A stretch of DNA of 64,000 bases from NCBI RefSeq assembly GCF_050920415.1, contig NZ_CP169309.1; one strand, given 5' to 3'. The notes beneath the pieces are model-generated. The model had not been told where the DNA came from. It ran no database searches and saw only the letters and a list, made by a program, of their open reading frames with translations. Shown here piece by piece: positions 18,153 through 61,541 of this stretch. Origin of the DNA: Escherichia coli. Lineage in GTDB: Bacteria > Pseudomonadota > Gammaproteobacteria > Enterobacterales > Enterobacteriaceae. The position numbers and the translations under genes are program-made. Position 1 is the stretch's first letter; each line of letters starts with the position of its first letter.

Positions 18153-18722
18153 GTGAGCCGATTCATCCCCGTCGAATTACACCATGCCAGCCGTCTGTTA
18201 AACCACGGCCCCACAGTTTTGATAACAACTTTTGATGAAAAATCACAGCGACGTAATGTGATGGCTGCGGCCTGGTCGATGCCGGTGGAGTTTGAACCGC
18301 CACGTGTGGCGATTGTGGTAGATAAATCGACATGGACCAGGGAGTTGATTGAGCGTAACGGTAAATTTGGCATCGTTATCCCGGGCGTTGCGGCGACTAA
18401 CTGGACGTGGGCGGTGGGAAGTGTGTCGGGTCGTGAAGAAGATAAATTTAATTGCTATGGCATTCCGGTTGTGAAAGGTCCGGTGCTTGGATTGCCGCTG
18501 GTTGAAGAGAAATGTCTGGCATGGATGGAGTGTCGATTGCTACCAGCGACTTCTGCGCAAGAAAAATACGATACGCTATTTGGCGAAGTGGTATCGGCAG
18601 CGGCAGACGCACGAGTATTTGTCGAAGGCCGCTGGCAGTTTGATGATGACAAACTCAATACACTACATCATTTAGGTGCTGGCACGTTTGTTACCAGCGG
18701 CAAGCGAGTTGCCGCTGGTTAA
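18153..18722 (+). CDS. yddH: Flavin reductase-like domain protein
   Basis: 189-aa ORF, conserved neighbour of nhoA. Confidence 0.8.
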   Translation: MSRFIPVELHHASRLLNHGPTVLITTFDEKSQRRNVMAAAWSMPVEFEPPRVAIVVDKSTWTRELIERNGKFGIVIPGVAATNWTWAVGSVSGREEDKFNCYGIPVVKGPVLGLPLVEEKCLAWMECRLLPATSAQEKYDTLFGEVVSAAADARVFVEGRWQFDDDKLNTLHHLGAGTFVTSGKRVAAG

Positions 18723-18760
18723 AGAGAGAGCGTTCAGAATTCTGTGTGACGTTAAAAATT

Positions 18761-19156
18761 CTACAGCGTCATCACATTATTCAGCCGCCCTTCAAAATAA
18801 ATAGCTAACTGTGACAATGTCAAATTCCAGCTCTGAACTGGCATTGTCCATTTTTTCTGCGCATTCATCAGTCCCAGGTAAAGTAGCTTCAACAGGCTGT
18901 TTTCATTCGGGAAGGCACCTTTTGTTTTGGTCAGCTTTCTGAACTGCCGGTGAACTGACTCGATAGCATTGGTCGTGTAAATCACCTTACGGATACCCGC
19001 CGGATAACGGAAGTAATGCGACAGATTTTCCCATTTTCGCCGCCACGACTGAAGCACCACCGGATACTGCTGACCCCATTTCGCCTCCAGCTCGTCCAGC
19101 GCTGTTTCTGCCGCCTCCTTCGATACCGCACGGTACACCGGTTTCAGGTCGGCCAT
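18761..19156 (-). pseudogene. IS256-family (mutator-type) transposase, C-terminal fragment only
   Basis: 131-aa ORF with the family C-terminal signature ...IYTTNAIESVHRQFRKLTKTKGAFPNENSLLKLLYLGL...KKWTMPVQSWN...; the N-terminal ~270 aa are missing and the fragment abuts the ISAs1 ORF. Confidence 0.7.
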
Positions 19157-19159
19157 GAG

Positions 19160-20400
19160 CCAGGGAAAGATTACGAAAGCCCGCTCCCCGCAAGGACTGA
19201 CGCCAGATACTTTCTGTCCATGGCTGCTTTTCGCATCTTACGTCTTAACCCTGCCTTGAATACCTTATCATTCGTCAAAATATTAATAGCGATGTGCCGT
19301 ATCCCTGAAAATAATTCTGCTGCATTTCCTCTTCTTATTTTGCAGTCGTCTTCATTCATTACCACGTCCAGACGCCAGTGCAGCTTATTCTCCACGTGCC
19401 AGTGATTTCGGATCGCTGTGGCGAACTTCTCTGCGGTTAAATCAGCAGAACTGATATAATATCTGACCGTCATTTCTGGCTCTTTCTTTTGTTCTGCTAT
19501 TATTGACCGAAAGGAGACTGCCACGCATAATTTCTTCAGACCTTTCCATTCAAACGTGAAATCAATAAGTTCATCAGGGACATCGCAAACAATATGAAGA
19601 CGGATTTCTTCTCTGCCGTGACTCTTTTCACTAATTGCGTAACTGTCATGCTCTGGATTATTTAATTCTTTCAGCGGAAATTTTTCCTCGAAGGCTTTAT
19701 TTAGCCGCCCCTGGTTTCCTTTTACAGCGAATAAATAATCACCTCCCTGTTTTTGTATCTTCTCTGCAATATCTTTCTGGCAACCCATCGCATCAGTTGT
19801 GATGATTTTTCCTTTAATATCCAGCATGTTAAGAAGTTCTGGGATAGCTGTAATCTCATTGGATTTCTCATCCGTCTTGATCTGTCCGATGACCAGACTG
19901 TGCATTGTTGAGAACGCACTAATGACATGAATCGCTCCCCTGCGGCGACTCTTGTCATAAGAGTGCCGGAGCGTTTTTCCATCAATTGCAATGACGTCTT
20001 TATCATCTGAAGAATGACATTCACGCATCCGGTTAATAAAGCATTCGTGAAATTTTGCAGGACTGATACATGATACAACTCTGGCAATAGTATCGTGAAC
20101 AGGAATACCATTTTCAAAATCACCATATTGCTTCAAAAAATCGAGATGAGTTTCCCCGAAATCCTCTATATCTTCCCAGCCTTCTGCACCCGAAATAACG
20201 GCGCAAATAGTCAACAGTAGAATATCCGATAATTTATGCTCCACTTTCCAGGCTTGTCTGTAATCGGGGATAATAGAAATATGTTCCATCAATTTTTTAA
20301 GTTCCATTTTGTTCTCCTTAATTATGTAAGGAGTATTTGATCATGTATAAGCAATAAAAAACAGCTTCAGGTAATGAGGAATATCTCAATTTTTAAACAT
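19160..20400 (-). mobile_element. ISAs1-family (H-repeat) element; ends not resolved
   Basis: Inferred from the transposase ORF; terminal inverted repeats were not identified by eye. Confidence 0.45.
19171..20307 (-). CDS. ISAs1-family transposase (H-repeat-associated protein, YdcC-like), intact
   Basis: 378-aa [65 protein letters not shown]...; matches the H-repeat protein family. Confidence 0.85.
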
Positions 20401-20476
20401 AAAATGCGAATTGTTTAGTACAAAAAAGCAGCGTTAAGTGAGTAGGCCACCGGAACCTCCCCGACAGCCTCTCGCA

Positions 20477-20510
20477 GAACCGTACGTGAAACTCTCGCTT
20501 CATACGGCTC
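20477..20510 (-). ncRNA. Group II intron domain V (catalytic hairpin)
   Basis: Minus strand reads GAGCCGTATGAAGCGAGAGTTTCACGTACGGTTC: AGC triad, GAGA GNRA loop, flanking GAGC/GTTC helix. Confidence 0.8.
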
Positions 20511-20513
20511 CCG

Positions 20514-21836
20514 TCAGGCAAACGCGCTTCCTGGTCCTGCTTTCCAGTGGGCAAACAACTCCGGCTTCTCTTTTGACAGTCTTTCCATTAGCTGACACGC
20601 CTTCGTCTTTCTATACCACAGGGTTTTATATTTCTTTCTCGCCCACGCAATCAGCGTCAGATTAATATATCTGCATACTTTCTTCATCGCTGATTTGTGG
20701 TATCTCGCGTAATAATTCAGCCACCCCGATATTATCAGATTCAGCCACTTCGCAATATCTTCGAGACTCATCTCCACCCTGCGTCTGATCCACAGTTTCC
20801 TGAGTTTTCCAATCATGCCTTTCTGCGCACGGTTACTCGCCGCCGGGCTGAAACTCGTAAAGAGGTTTCCCCGCCGGTGGTTACGTGCTCTTCGCGCTCT
20901 GAACGTATACCCCAGAAAATCAAACTGCACTGTTTCATGGTTCGCCTGTCGTTCGCTGTCTTTGCAGTAAACTATTTTCGTTTTCTCCGGATGTAATTCC
21001 AGTCCACATTCCTGAAAACGTTTTGCCAGCTTATTCAGTAATTCCTCTGCCTGTTGTTTACTGCCACAATGAATTAATCCATCATCTGCATAACGGCACC
21101 AGGGAATTTCCGGATAATGTAACGTCAGCCATTTATCAAACACATAGTGCAGAAATAAATTCGCCAGTACCGGGCTGATGACTCCACCCTGTGGCGTACC
21201 TTTATTTCTTTCCTTCAGTGTTCCATCCGGCATCTGCACCGGCGCTGTCAGCCAGCGGCGAATAGACAGTCTTACCCATTTATCCGCACAATGTTTATCT
21301 ACTGCCCTGAGTAATAAATCGTGGGGGATATTATCGAATAACCCTTTAATATCAAACTCAAGACACCAGTCGTATTGCCAGCAACGTTTTCTGGTGACTG
21401 CTATTGCATCCAGCGCTGATTTTCCATGCCGGTATCCGTATGAATCATTCAGGAAATAACGCTCCACTAATGGTTCAAACGTTACCAGCACCGTCATCTG
21501 CGCTATTCTATCGCTTACTGTCGGTATTCCTAAAAGTCTTTTGCTGCCATCCTTCTTCGGAATTTCCACCGCACGCACTGGCGGCGGCATCCAGCTTCCC
21601 GACGATAACCTGTTCCAGATTTTGTACAGATTTCCTTTCAGATCCCGCTCAAAATCTTTCAGCGTCTGGTTATCCACTCCGGCAGCTCCGGCATTCGCCT
21701 TTATCCGCCGGTACGCTTCCACCACATGCAATTTACTGACCTGAAACGGTTTTGTCTGTTCACACACAGTCTCCTCCTGCCTACAGTTGGGCTGTGATGC
21801 AGACTGCCCGACGCTGTCCCTTCGCTCCACGTTCAT
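20514..21836 (-). CDS. Group II intron reverse transcriptase/maturase, no endonuclease domain
   Basis: Track ORF 20514..22031; RT domain 0 at LHVVEAYRRIKANAGAAGVDNQT, fingers GTPQGGVISPVLANLFL, palm WCRYADDGLIHCGS (YADD), C-terminal X/maturase-like block GWLNYYARYH; likely start near MNVERRDSV. Confidence 0.85.
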   Translation of the reverse strand: MNVERRDSVGQSASQPNCRQEETVCEQTKPFQVSKLHVVEAYRRIKANAGAAGVDNQTLKDFERDLKGNLYKIWNRLSSGSWMPPPVRAVEIPKKDGSKRLLGIPTVSDRIAQMTVLVTFEPLVERYFLNDSYGYRHGKSALDAIAVTRKRCWQYDWCLEFDIKGLFDNIPHDLLLRAVDKHCADKWVRLSIRRWLTAPVQMPDGTLKERNKGTPQGGVISPVLANLFLHYVFDKWLTLHYPEIPWCRYADDGLIHCGSKQQAEELLNKLAKRFQECGLELHPEKTKIVYCKDSERQANHETVQFDFLGYTFRARRARNHRRGNLFTSFSPAASNRAQKGMIGKLRKLWIRRRVEMSLEDIAKWLNLIISGWLNYYARYHKSAMKKVCRYINLTLIAWARKKYKTLWYRKTKACQLMERLSKEKPELFAHWKAGPGSAFA

Positions 21837-22398
21837 TACAAACGCTTCCTCACTACTACGAACAGCTCTGCCCCGGTTTCGCACATCGATACTCTCATAC
21901 TCATAATTTCGGTTATTTGTAATTCTCTCTTGACATTGCGACGACCGGTTCCCGTAGTTCCTGCAAAGAGCCCGATACAGCGTCATGCCTGCTATACACC
22001 GGACATCATTCACGCAGCATTCGGAATTCACCCGTAAATTAATCCCGGCGGTATCACGAAACCTCCGGTTTTGATGTCACTTAGGACTAACGACGTTTCA
22101 ACACAGGTTCGGGTTTACTCATCTCACTGTATCTCACATAGGATCAGATCTCGTCTGATCGTTCCCCCTGCGCTCACTACCATGGCTCTTTACCACAGCA
22201 GCCGGGGTTGTTTGGGACCGACTTCCGACAGCAGATCCCGGTGGGCCTGCCACCATCTCTTCACAAGCTTATGCTTATTACATGCAAAACGTCCCGTTTT
22301 GCATCTTTGTGCCTACGGCACACCGTGATCTTTCCCTGGGAATAAAAGAAAGTTCACTGTAGTTATTAATGATATTTACTTCTTCATTCATATTTTAC

Positions 22399-22788
22399 CT
22401 ATTTAGAAAAACATATGCTCGCTTCCTCCGTGATAGAGATAACATAATCAGGTATTATTTCAAATACAGGAGTAATTAAGTATGGTCTGGAGTAACCATT
22501 ATTAAAATCCACACTATCAACTAAAAAACTAATAATGCTATCTTTGTCAGAAACAATCAATGATTCTCGGTAATAAGTTTTTTTACCTTTATTTCTCACA
22601 ATATTCAGTGCAATGTAGAATCTATCGTCTATCATAATGTCAGAAAGATTTTTAACATGATCTACCCAAGTGATGCTTCGACATTGCTCTTTTTTATTGA
22701 GCATTGCAAAAAAAATATCTTCTTTCACTTTCTCACTTGGTAACTGACTTAAAGGTTTTATACCTGTAAATATAAATTTAGTTTTCAT
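22399..22788 (-). CDS. Hypothetical protein, AT-rich orphan ORF (129 aa)
   Basis: Open frame in strongly AT-rich DNA (stop codons are AT-rich, so long ORFs here are non-random); no recognisable motif. Confidence 0.5.
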   Translation of the reverse strand: MKTKFIFTGIKPLSQLPSEKVKEDIFFAMLNKKEQCRSITWVDHVKNLSDIMIDDRFYIALNIVRNKGKKTYYRESLIVSDKDSIISFLVDSVDFNNGYSRPYLITPVFEIIPDYVISITEEASICFSK

Positions 22789-22818
22789 ATTGGCTAATTC
22801 GTTTGAAGAGTTGCTACT

Positions 22819-23241
22819 TTATTCAATCCAGTAAGCTAGTCGCTCTCCAGAACTTAGATTTTCCCTTTTGTAATAAAATACCGTATCGAAATTAAGTGAA
22901 ATGTTTGCCGCTATAACTTTAAACTGTAATATTGACTCGGAATAAAACTCGAGAATAATATTAGCATCATTATCATCGTTAATTATTTTTAGTTTCATAA
23001 AATCATCAAGAGGATCACAAGTCCAGTGCGTATCACCACTCATGTAAGATGGTGCATTTATTATTATTTCAAAATTATGATAGTACGAAAGATCACTACT
23101 GCCAACGATAATTAATCGCCCATTACTATAGAGATAAATTTCAAAATCTATCCAACAGTTATTTCTGTAATTACGCCTAATTTCGTCCACTACATTTTGT
23201 TGTTTCATTTTGGATTCTTGTAAAAGATAATTACTACGCAT
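22819..23241 (-). CDS. Hypothetical protein, AT-rich orphan ORF (140 aa; alternative start MKQQNVVDEIRR near 23208)
   Basis: Co-directional with neighbours; no recognisable motif. Confidence 0.5.
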   Translation of the reverse strand: MRSNYLLQESKMKQQNVVDEIRRNYRNNCWIDFEIYLYSNGRLIIVGSSDLSYYHNFEIIINAPSYMSGDTHWTCDPLDDFMKLKIINDDNDANIILEFYSESILQFKVIAANISLNFDTVFYYKRENLSSGERLAYWIE

Positions 23242-23285
23242 TGACTAAGTGAAATATTATCTTCTATAGATCGTATCTGTAAAAT

Positions 23286-23618
23286 TTAAAATGTGTTAAC
23301 TTCACTTCTTAATAATACAAATTCCTCCAGGCTTAATATTTTATTTTTTAATTCATCATGCCTGATCGTATCATTGATATAGAGAAGATAAGTATACTCA
23401 GGATAATCGACCTCATCCACTACGCCATCCAAAACATCATAATTTTCTTTTAGAAGAAAATGTTCATGTCTTTTGTCTCCGGGCAATAAATAGATTCCGC
23501 CATAATAAAGGCTTTCTTTCTCTTTAAATGTGATTTTTATCAGATCTTCTAACATCTTCTGCGCATCATATATTTCCACCCCATAATATCCATACAAGTC
23601 ATAATAACCCATTCCCAT
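23286..23618 (-). CDS. Hypothetical acidic protein, AT-rich orphan ORF (110 aa)
   Basis: Tyr/Glu/Asp-rich small protein; no recognisable motif. Confidence 0.45.
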   Translation of the reverse strand: MGMGYYDLYGYYGVEIYDAQKMLEDLIKITFKEKESLYYGGIYLLPGDKRHEHFLLKENYDVLDGVVDEVDYPEYTYLLYINDTIRHDELKNKILSLEEFVLLRSEVNTF

Positions 23619-23639
23619 TTCACCTGTTTGAATTTGTAT

Positions 23640-23840
23640 TCATTCACCCTCACGGGATTTACCAATTACATTCAGCAGTGGCATTAAATGTAATGTTACA
23701 AAACTATCACATCTTTCCTGAATTATCATTTGGATATAATGTTTTGTGTCATTGCTACCATATTCAGCCATATAGAATATTACTGCGTCCATTATATCTC
23801 TTTCATAGTTTTCTAATGCATCAACAAATACATCAACCAA
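23640..23840 (-). CDS. Hypothetical protein (66 aa, TTG start), possibly the 3' remnant of a gene disrupted upstream
   Basis: Short ORF lying 120 bp from the IS2 left end; low confidence. Confidence 0.35.
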   Translation of the reverse strand: MVDVFVDALENYERDIMDAVIFYMAEYGSNDTKHYIQMIIQERCDSFVTLHLMPLLNVIGKSREGE

Positions 23841-24050
23841 AGTATTAACGTCTTTACTTGATGGATGCTCTGAAAGATTATTTTCATTTGTGAGAATCTG
23901 AATCGTACCATTACGATTCTCTTAGAAATATCATTAAATACGCTACCGCCCTACCCTGATAGACTGGCCCCCTGAATCTCCAGACAACCAGTATCACTTA
24001 AATAAGTGATAGTCTTAATACTAGTTTTTAGACTAGTCATTGGAGAACAG

Positions 24051-24416
24051 ATGATTGATGTCTTAGGGCCGGAGAAACGCAGACGGCGTACCACACAGGA
24101 AAAGATCGCAATTGTTCAGCAGAGCTTTGAACCGGGGATGACGGTCTCCCTCGTTGCCCGGCAACATGGTGTAGCAGCCAGCCAGTTATTTCTCTGGCGT
24201 AAGCAATACCAGGAAGGAAGTCTTACTGCTGTCGCCGCCGGAGAACAGGTTGTTCCTGCCTCTGAACTTGCTGCCGCCATGAAGCAGATTAAAGAACTCC
24301 AGCGCCTGCTCGGCAAGAAAACGATGGAAAATGAACTCCTCAAAGAAGCCGTTGAATATGGACGGGCAAAAAAGTGGATAGCGCACGCGCCCTTATTGCC
24401 CGGGGATGGGGAGTAA
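24051..24416 (+). CDS. insC: IS2 transposase OrfA
   Basis: [56 protein letters not shown]... Confidence 0.95.
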
Positions 24417-25279
24417 GCTTAGTCAGCCGTTGTCTCCGGGTGTCGCGTGCGCAGTTGCACGTCATTCTCAGACGAACCGATGACTGGATGGATGGCCGCC
24501 GCAGTCGTCACACTGATGATACGGATGTGCTTCTCCGTATACACCATGTTATCGGAGAGCTGCCCACGTATGGTTATCGTCGGGTATGGGCGCTGCTTCG
24601 CAGACAGGCAGAACTTGATGGTATGCCTGCGATCAATGCCAAACGTGTTTACCGGATCATGCGCCAGAATGCGCTGTTGCTTGAGCGAAAACCTGCTGTA
24701 CCGCCATCGAAACGGGCACATACAGGCAGAGTGGCCGTGAAAGAAAGCAATCAGCGATGGTGCTCTGACGGGTTCGAGTTCTGCTGTGATAACGGAGAGA
24801 GACTGCGTGTCACGTTCGCGCTGGACTGCTGTGATCGTGAGGCACTGCACTGGGCGGTGACTACTGGCGGCTTCAACAGTGAAACAGTACAGGACGTCAT
24901 GCTGGGAGCGGTGGAACGCCGCTTCGGCAACGATCTTCCGTCGTCTCCAGTGGAGTGGCTGACGGATAATGGTTCATGCTACCGGGCTAATGAAACACGC
25001 CAGTTCGCCCGGATGTTGGGACTTGAACCGAAGAACACGGCGGTGCGGAGTCCGGAGAGTAACGGAATAGCAGAGAGCTTCGTGAAAACGATAAAGCGTG
25101 ACTACATCAGTATCATGCCCAAACCAGACGGGTTAACGGCAGCAAAGAACCTTGCAGAGGCGTTCGAGCATTATAACGAATGGCATCCGCATAGTGCGCT
25201 GGGTTATCGCTCGCCACGGGAATATCTGCGGCAGCGGGCTTGTAATGGGTTAAGTGATAACAGATGTCTGGAAATATAG
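24374..25279 (+). CDS. insD: IS2 transposase OrfB (DDE integrase domain)
   Basis: 301-aa [37 protein letters not shown]... overlapping insC in the -1 frame, as in IS3-family elements. Confidence 0.95.
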
Positions 25280-25513
25280 GGGCAAATCCACCTGATAACA
25301 TGATCTGCACTGCGTTATCATATCGACATGTTTCTCTATATGCGAAGAGATGTTTTATTTTCGGATTAAATTAAATTGATATTCAATATAAAATACAGAA
25401 TCACATCAGCGACATAAATAGTTGTAACAACTTCAATTACCATTCATAGCAAACAAATAGACGTCCAGTTAACTTTGCCGATGATTTATTAACATTAATC
25501 TCCGGCATTGTTG

Positions 25514-59084: not shown

Positions 59085-59366
59085 TACCGTTGTCTCTCTT
59101 CCAGGTTTACTCCTGATAGAAAGTCATCGGCATTTGACGGTAATTACTTACGACTAAAAACCTCTTTGCGTCACATTTTTACAACAATTATTGCAGAGAA
59201 GATTAATGCCATTGGATTGAAGAAAGTGAGGAATGGTTAAACTGGCTAACCCGAATGACGAAAAATTCTGGAAAACAGCACGCTATTTCGTGAAGTGATT
59301 ATTTTCGTCCCTAAGGAAACCTCATAGGATGCCTGCGGGTGCCTGTACTGCCCCCCTTTTTACGCT

Positions 59367-59710: not shown

Positions 59711-59775
59711 CTTCCGATGTAGGCCCGTATTCTTCGCCTGTACCACGGGTCGGTTTTAGTACAGGCGTTTTCTTT
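59711..59775 (+). ncRNA. rydC: RydC Hfq-dependent small RNA
   Basis: CTTCCGATGTAGGCCCGTATTCTTCGCCTGTACCACGGGTCGGTTTTAGTACAGGCGTTTTCTT matches remembered RydC, including the terminator hairpin CGCCTGTAC...GTACAGGCG plus U-run. Confidence 0.75.
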
Positions 59776-60315: not shown

Positions 60316-60503
60316 AACATTTCCTGCTTTAACATAATTTTCCGTTAACATAACGAGCTTTTCTTAAAATTTCATTAAATTTTGTTCACCCGTTTTCAGT
60401 ACGTTACGTTTCACGGCAAGAATGTAGATTGCCCATCCCGCCATCCTGGTCTAAGCCTGGAAAGGATCAATTTTCATCCGAACGTTCCTGACAGGAGAAG
60501 ACC

Positions 60504-61505
60504 ATGAGTAAAGTTGGTATTAACGGTTTTGGTCGTATCGGTCGACTGGTGTTGCGTCGATTACTTGAAGTCAAAAGCAACATAGACATTGTCGCTATTA
60601 ATGATCTCACTTCCCCAAAAATTCTCGCCTACCTGCTGAAACATGATTCAAACTACGGACCGTTCCCCTGGAGCGTTGATTTTACGGAAGATTCACTTAT
60701 CGTTGATGGAAAAAGTATCGCGGTTTACGCCGAAAAAGAGGCTAAAAATATTCCATGGAAAGCGAAAGGCGCAGAAATCATTGTCGAATGTACTGGCTTT
60801 TATACCTCCGCCGAGAAATCGCAGGCGCACCTTGATGCTGGTGCGAAGAAGGTGTTGATTTCCGCCCCTGCCGGTGAAATGAAAACCATCGTTTATAACG
60901 TCAATGACGACACACTGGATGGCAACGACACCATTGTTTCCGTGGCGTCATGCACCACTAACTGTCTTGCACCGATGGCCAAAGCCTTGCACGACAGTTT
61001 CGGAATAGAAGTCGGCACGATGACGACCATTCATGCCTATACTGGCACCCAGTCACTGGTGGATGGCCCGCGAGGTAAAGATCTACGCGCTTCACGTGCA
61101 GCGGCAGAAAATATCATTCCCCACACTACAGGCGCGGCAAAAGCCATTGGTCTGGTGATCCCAGAACTGAGCGGCAAACTGAAAGGTCATGCGCAACGCG
61201 TACCCGTGAAAACAGGTTCGGTGACTGAACTGGTGTCTATTCTTGGAAAAAAAGTGACTGCCGAAGAGGTGAACAACGCGCTTAAAAACGCGACAAACAA
61301 TAACGAGTCATTTGGTTATACCGATGAAGAAATAGTCTCTTCTGATATCATTGGCAGCCATTTCGGGTCGGTGTTTGATGCCACGCAAACCGAAATTACC
61401 GCCGTGGGCGATTTACAGCTGGTGAAAACGGTCGCCTGGTATGATAACGAATATGGCTTCGTCACGCAGCTTATTCGCACCCTCGAAAAATTCGCTAAAC
61501 TCTGA
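60504..61505 (+). CDS. gapC: Glyceraldehyde-3-phosphate dehydrogenase, intact 333-aa frame
   Basis: [22 protein letters not shown]... (NAD-binding GxGxxG); active-site context SCTTNCLAP. Confidence 0.9.
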
Positions 61506-61511
61506 CGAGCA

Positions 61512-61541
61512 AAGGCGGAGGGAAAAGCCTCCGCCTCTTTC
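61512..61541 (+). terminator. Rho-independent terminator after gapC, shared with convergent aldA
   Basis: AGGCGGAGG-GAAAAGC-CTCCGCCT hairpin followed by CTTTC. Confidence 0.5.

Follow-up and report, generated by a model that had tools for sequence, protein, structure and literature searches.

GapA is the housekeeping (glycolytic) glyceraldehyde-3-phosphate dehydrogenase (GAPDH) of Escherichia coli, and Epd (GapB) is a diverged paralogue in the same species, which provides a precedent for paralogue specialisation. A further gene, gapC, was described by Hidalgo et al. in 1996, as cited in PMC10614358; UniProt P58072 is the GapC protein of O157:H7. According to the summary given in PMC2949598, of which Espinosa-Urgel is a co-author, Espinosa-Urgel & Kolter (Mol Microbiol 1998) found an unbroken gapC in environmental isolates and a truncated one in laboratory strains, and the same summary credits the 1998 work with the observation that expression of gapC occurs preferentially in fresh water; the work is also referred to in PMC1796617. 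The existence of intact gapC alleles has therefore been known since 1998. In K-12, transcription of the gapC fragments is rpoS-dependent and increases in slow growth (PMC2759082; PMC4512719), and a ChIP-seq peak of sigma-S RNA polymerase was assigned to the gapC_1/cybB interval (PMC4447067). The closest characterized protein is EcGAPDH1, 99% identical to the GapC studied here, which is active and NAD-dependent, with a KM of 0.73 mM for D-glyceraldehyde-3-phosphate (D-G3P); its C150A mutant is inactive, the C150S and H177A mutants are down ~38,000-fold and ~8,000-fold, respectively, and its NAD+ contacts involve R11, I12, D34 and S120 (PMC8615399).

Here, we analysed the gapC locus in a 64,000-nt stretch of the E. 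coli contig NZ_CP169309.1 (assembly GCF_050920415.1), hereafter the window. The features discussed below are listed in Table 1.

Table 1. Features of the gapC locus and of the mobile-element island in the window
Feature	Position	Strand	Remarks
ISAs1-family transposase (ydcC-like)	19171-20307	-	Intact, 378 aa
Group II intron reverse transcriptase/maturase	20514-22031	-	505 aa
Three small ORFs	22399-23618	-	No Pfam match
IS3-family orfA/orfB pair	24006-25279	+	
cybB-gapC divergent intergenic region	60352..60503	.	152 bp; presumed location of the gapC promoter, from position only
Shine-Dalgarno AGGAG	60493..60497	+	6 nt 5' of the gapC ATG; direct sequence reading
gapC ORF	60504..61505	+	ATG start, 333 aa, single frame (ORF list)
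NAD-binding glycine motif G8-F-G10-R-I-G13	60525..60542	+	Translation
gapC codon 39, AAA (Lys)	60618..60620	+	TAA in K-12 and at least 1152 other complete genomes (alignment, 57-mer searches)
Active-site segment S149-C150-T-T-N-C-L-A-P	60948..60974	+	Contains catalytic Cys150; translation
His177 codon (catalytic base)	61032..61034	+	TIHAYT segment; translation
A7 homopolymer, gapC codons 247-249	61241..61247	+	A6 frameshift in K-12-type alleles and strain M15 (alignments)
GC-rich hairpin of 9 bp, located between the stop codons of gapC and aldA (convergent genes)	61513..61536	.	Probable terminator; RNA fold

The gapC product is a type I GAPDH

The Pfam domains Gp_dh_N (E=9e-36) and Gp_dh_C (E=4e-58) were both detected in the gapC translation, and the equivalog profile for type I GAPDH (TIGR01534, EC 1.2.1.12) scored 446.2 bits against a curated cutoff of 367.2, aligning GapC residues 3-325 with profile positions 1-330 and thus covering the full length of the family model. 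The frame is therefore not a chance ORF, and the initial annotation, which had read it as a single 333-aa GAPDH frame, is borne out by the ORF list and by both databases. The two motifs named in that annotation, the NAD-binding GxGxxG and the catalytic cysteine context SCTTNCLAP, were found in the translation, the former in a Rossmann NAD-binding domain that is followed by the C-terminal catalytic domain. In GAPDH structures, the acidic residue that ends beta-strand B determines the preference for NAD over NADP, and in the window GapC this determinant is D34, within the AINDL segment. All the catalytic, cofactor and phosphate-site residues inspected, with the numbering of PMC8615399, are in place (R11, I12, D34, K78, S120, S149, C150, T151, H177, T180, R195, T209, G210 and R232). 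Cys150 and His177, at which an inactivating substitution would have spoken against a working enzyme, are both intact.

The best match in the PDB is E. coli EcGAPDH1 (7C5F, together with its mutants; the available structures are 7C5F, 7C5H, 7C5P and 7C7K), with 330 of 333 residues identical. The differences fall at three peripheral positions, at which I29, N262 and N265 of the window GapC are replaced by Val, Gln and Thr (I29V, N262Q and N265T). More broadly, the intact GapC proteins of E. coli, including P58072 of O157:H7, RefSeq WP_000048645.1 and EcGAPDH1, resemble the window protein in locus, in length (333 aa) and in their catalytic and NAD-binding residues. As judged from its sequence, the window protein is a type I, NAD-dependent, phosphorylating GAPDH.

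The relationship with the other E. coli members of the superfamily is more distant. GapA shares the fold, the reaction chemistry and the catalytic Cys/His pair but belongs to a different, 'eukaryote-like' subfamily represented by PRK15425, a model against which the window GapC scored only 302 bits, the cutoff being 662. Epd/GapB shares the superfamily and the domain pair, but the window GapC is not a member of that group, as its scores of 277-280 bits fall well below the cutoffs of 530-539 of the Epd/GapB (erythrose-4-phosphate dehydrogenase) models. A score of 307 bits was likewise below the cutoff of 450 of the model for ArsJ-associated GAPDH, and the generic GAPDH-I equivalog was the only model passed among those tested. 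These scores bear on whether GapC has diverged to some other main role, as an erythrose-4-phosphate or arsenate-related enzyme or as a moonlighting or surface protein. The presence of both GapA and Epd in E. coli shows that specialisation has a precedent, and the closest structural relatives of the window GapC outside E. coli, by sequence, include Gap proteins of Streptococcus and Staphylococcus; by score, GapC groups with such Gram-positive Gap/GapC proteins, some of which have been described as surface proteins. However, the Epd and ArsJ-associated models were not reached, arsJ is not adjacent to gapC, whose neighbours are cybB and aldA, and a nearly identical enzyme efficiently turns over G3P with NAD+ (PMC8615399). 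We regard a diverged main role as extremely unlikely.

Organization of the locus

Upstream, gapC is flanked by the divergent cybB on the minus strand, and downstream by the convergent aldA, also on the minus strand. This cybB-gapC-aldA order was found in MG1655, in strain N96 and in all 20 genomes sampled, which places the window gene at the orthologous position, and its identity with the 20 sampled alleles ranged from 93.8 to 100%, as expected of orthologues. The hairpin predicted between the gapC and aldA stop codons has a centroid energy of -19.3 kcal/mol (z = -3.6 against shuffled sequences); it was not flagged by a simple terminator scan because its T-run is weak, and it is probably a bidirectional terminator shared by the two genes.

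Several observations concern the neighbourhood rather than gapC itself. The gene for the small RNA RydC lies just downstream of cybB, at 59711-59775 on the plus strand, with 64 of 65 nt identical to MG1655 b4597. Around position 59345, in the gap between trg and ydcA, a 337-bp block that in K-12 carries the hokB/mokB/sokB type I toxin-antitoxin genes and yncP is absent from both the window and N96. The aldA gene is intact in the window (61547-62986, 479 aa), and in two of the sampled genomes, ST2747 and O111:NM FWSEC0005, the annotation gives a frameshifted aldA next to an intact gapC.

Comparison with the K-12 pseudogene

The initial annotation described gapC as split in K-12 by a frameshift or a stop, and the K-12 gene in fact carries both. 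In MG1655, gapC is annotated as a pseudogene of 1001 bp (b4493, formerly gapC_1 b1417 and gapC_2 b1416) located between aldA and cybB; its sequence is identical to that of the K-12-derived copy used in our alignment, which PGAP flags as 'frameshifted; internal stop'. The K-12 gene is found at the orthologous position, with the same orientation relative to cybB and aldA as in the window and 96% nucleotide identity. The alignment revealed 39 substitutions, five of them amino-acid-changing, and one indel. Two of these differences interrupt the K-12 frame: an AAA to TAA change at codon 39 (window position 60618) and, at codon 248, a 1-bp loss from the A7 run. Neither lesion is present in the window gene, whose frame is continuous; the K-12 gene also differs by R18G.

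The divergence of about 4% from K-12 extends beyond gapC, as identity to K-12 is 94-96% across the whole trg-ydcF region (gapC 96.1%, aldA 95.0% and ydcF 94.5%). Horizontal replacement or unusual divergence of gapC was considered and rejected on this ground, and its GC content (47.9%) is also at the background level of the whole window (48.3%).

Distribution of intact gapC in E. coli

The gapC locus was found in 5417 of 5426 complete E. coli genomes. The frequency of intact alleles was estimated in two ways, from the count of a diagnostic 57-mer spanning Lys39 and from sampled loci. The Lys39 57-mer was found as an exact match in 3222 of the 5426 genomes (59%), and the corresponding 57-mer with the K-12 stop (TAA39) in 1152 (21%), while a 58-mer with the A6 frameshift was exact in 1045. 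In a systematic sample of 19 complete genomes, taken from the even-numbered rows of an evenly spaced listing of the locus matches and read for both annotation and sequence, about 14 encode an intact 333-aa GapC (74%, 95% CI 49-91%); for two of the five broken genes, those of the laboratory strains H26 and H30, the status was assigned from scores and lengths identical to those of the K-12 match. Match length was also tried as a proxy for the frameshift and proved only partly valid, as strains PK12 and SC418 give 1250-bp matches and yet have an intact CDS, because of an indel in the gapC-aldA spacer.

Intact gapC is thus the common, majority state in the species, and the gene is inactivated in K-12 and in roughly one in five to one in four of the strains sequenced. 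While the K-12 lesions mentioned in the initial annotation are real, its implied contrast, in which the window strain would be special with respect to K-12, is therefore misleading: the intact gene is the majority condition in E. coli and was published long ago.

The K-12 stop is carried, among others, by isolates of human, swine, chicken and river-water origin. Given that the stop and the frameshift are shared by more than 1000 natural isolates, these lesions are an inherited lineage polymorphism and were not acquired in the laboratory. Three lesion patterns were distinguished among the sampled alleles: the codon-39 stop together with A6, the A6 frameshift by itself, and the loss of 1 bp at nt 418. 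The second is found in strain M15, which has the A7 to A6 frameshift and lacks the codon-39 stop, although a homopolymer sequencing error is possible in a single assembly; this pattern suggests either that the nonsense mutation arose after the frameshift or that slippage in the A run is recurrent. The third, a separate event, is found in ECONIH1. The repeated independent inactivation of gapC in other lineages indicates that, in some niches at least, E. coli can do without it.

Selection, expression and the window allele

These findings raise the question of whether the intact ORF could be effectively silent, a cryptic and decaying gene without GAPDH activity in vivo. With GapA already serving as the housekeeping enzyme, such a fate is conceivable, and it would agree with the occurrence in the species of three or more patterns of inactivating lesions and with the K-12 stop being carried by at least 21% of complete genomes. 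A scan of the cybB-gapC intergenic region, which is 94% identical to that of K-12, also returned no convincing consensus sigma-70 promoter; the single weak sigma-70-like match lies inside the cybB start region and does not exceed the yield from shuffled sequences, so that a strong sigma-70 promoter 5' of gapC is not apparent. However, the 13 different intact alleles among the sampled genomes average 0.10 in pairwise dS and 0.004 in pairwise dN, and the resulting dN/dS of ~0.04 at this level of synonymous divergence points to long-term purifying selection on GapC wherever the gene is intact, which argues against a silent relic. The gene is also preceded by a good ribosome-binding site, and the gapC promoter of K-12 is still active, rpoS-dependent and responsive to the environment (PMC4447067, PMC2759082, PMC2949598). 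A silent gapC is, therefore, quite unlikely.

We instead conclude, with high confidence, that the window carries an intact allele of the chromosomal gapC, encoding an NAD-dependent type I GAPDH that would serve as a second isoenzyme beside GapA, and that the intact form is the common state in the species and is maintained by selection. The enzyme would be a homotetrameric, phosphorylating GAPDH (EC 1.2.1.12) in which Cys150 would attack glyceraldehyde-3-phosphate, with His177 acting as the base; hydride would pass to NAD+, and phosphate would then cleave the thioacyl intermediate to release 1,3-bisphosphoglycerate. GapC would, in this way, add a second activity converting G3P to 1,3-bisphosphoglycerate alongside that of GapA. 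By analogy with K-12 and with the published work, the gene would probably be expressed in this strain from a promoter within the cybB-gapC intergenic region, under sigma-S control, in slow growth or in aquatic conditions at low temperature.

The window GapC is identical to RefSeq WP_000048645.1, the protein of strains N96 and ST2747, and the gapC genes of ST2747 and the window differ by 15 synonymous changes and by no amino acid change. At the nucleotide level, the haplotype is rare, as only 17 of 5417 genomes are at least 99% identical over the 1251-bp locus query; strain N96, of Tibetan pig origin, matches at 100% across it. The sequence of 7C5F equals WP_000048667, an allele carried by B1-type strains of the sample. 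With respect to the crystallised GapC allele, which is also the most common, the window protein has I29 instead of Val, N262 instead of Gln or Lys and N265 instead of Thr, a rarer combination. These residues are presumably neutral relative to the crystallised enzyme. That they confer distinct kinetic or regulatory properties is very unlikely in our opinion, and we hold the same of a related reading in which intact and broken gapC mark an ecological division between survival outside the host and life in the gut or the laboratory, with the K-12 lesions as an old natural lineage polymorphism.

The comparison with N96 also provided information on the rest of the window. Identity between the two is mosaic, at 90-91% in the 24-28 kb interval, 97-99.7% through ~52 kb and ~100% over the remainder beyond 52 kb, gapC included, which suggests recombination breakpoints within the window. 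The stretch at 18700-25300 is a variable mobile-element island (Table 1), and at the equivalent site N96 carries instead a T6SS Vgr/PAAR/M35-peptidase cassette, the differing insertion spanning 22.3-25.3 kb.

Concluding remarks

In this study, the suggestion that the strain may retain a functional second GAPDH gained support from a complete set of catalytic residues and from identity at 330 of 333 positions with the active EcGAPDH1. We see no sequence-level reason to doubt that the window GapC is active, and gapC is a real and probably functional gene in this strain. Beyond correct annotation, the finding matters little; a minor refinement from the genome survey is that the lesions of K-12 gapC are natural lineage polymorphisms. 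In this strain, gapC should be annotated as a functional gene and not as a pseudogene, and metabolic models and gapA-knockout designs based on strains other than K-12 should expect a second GAPDH.
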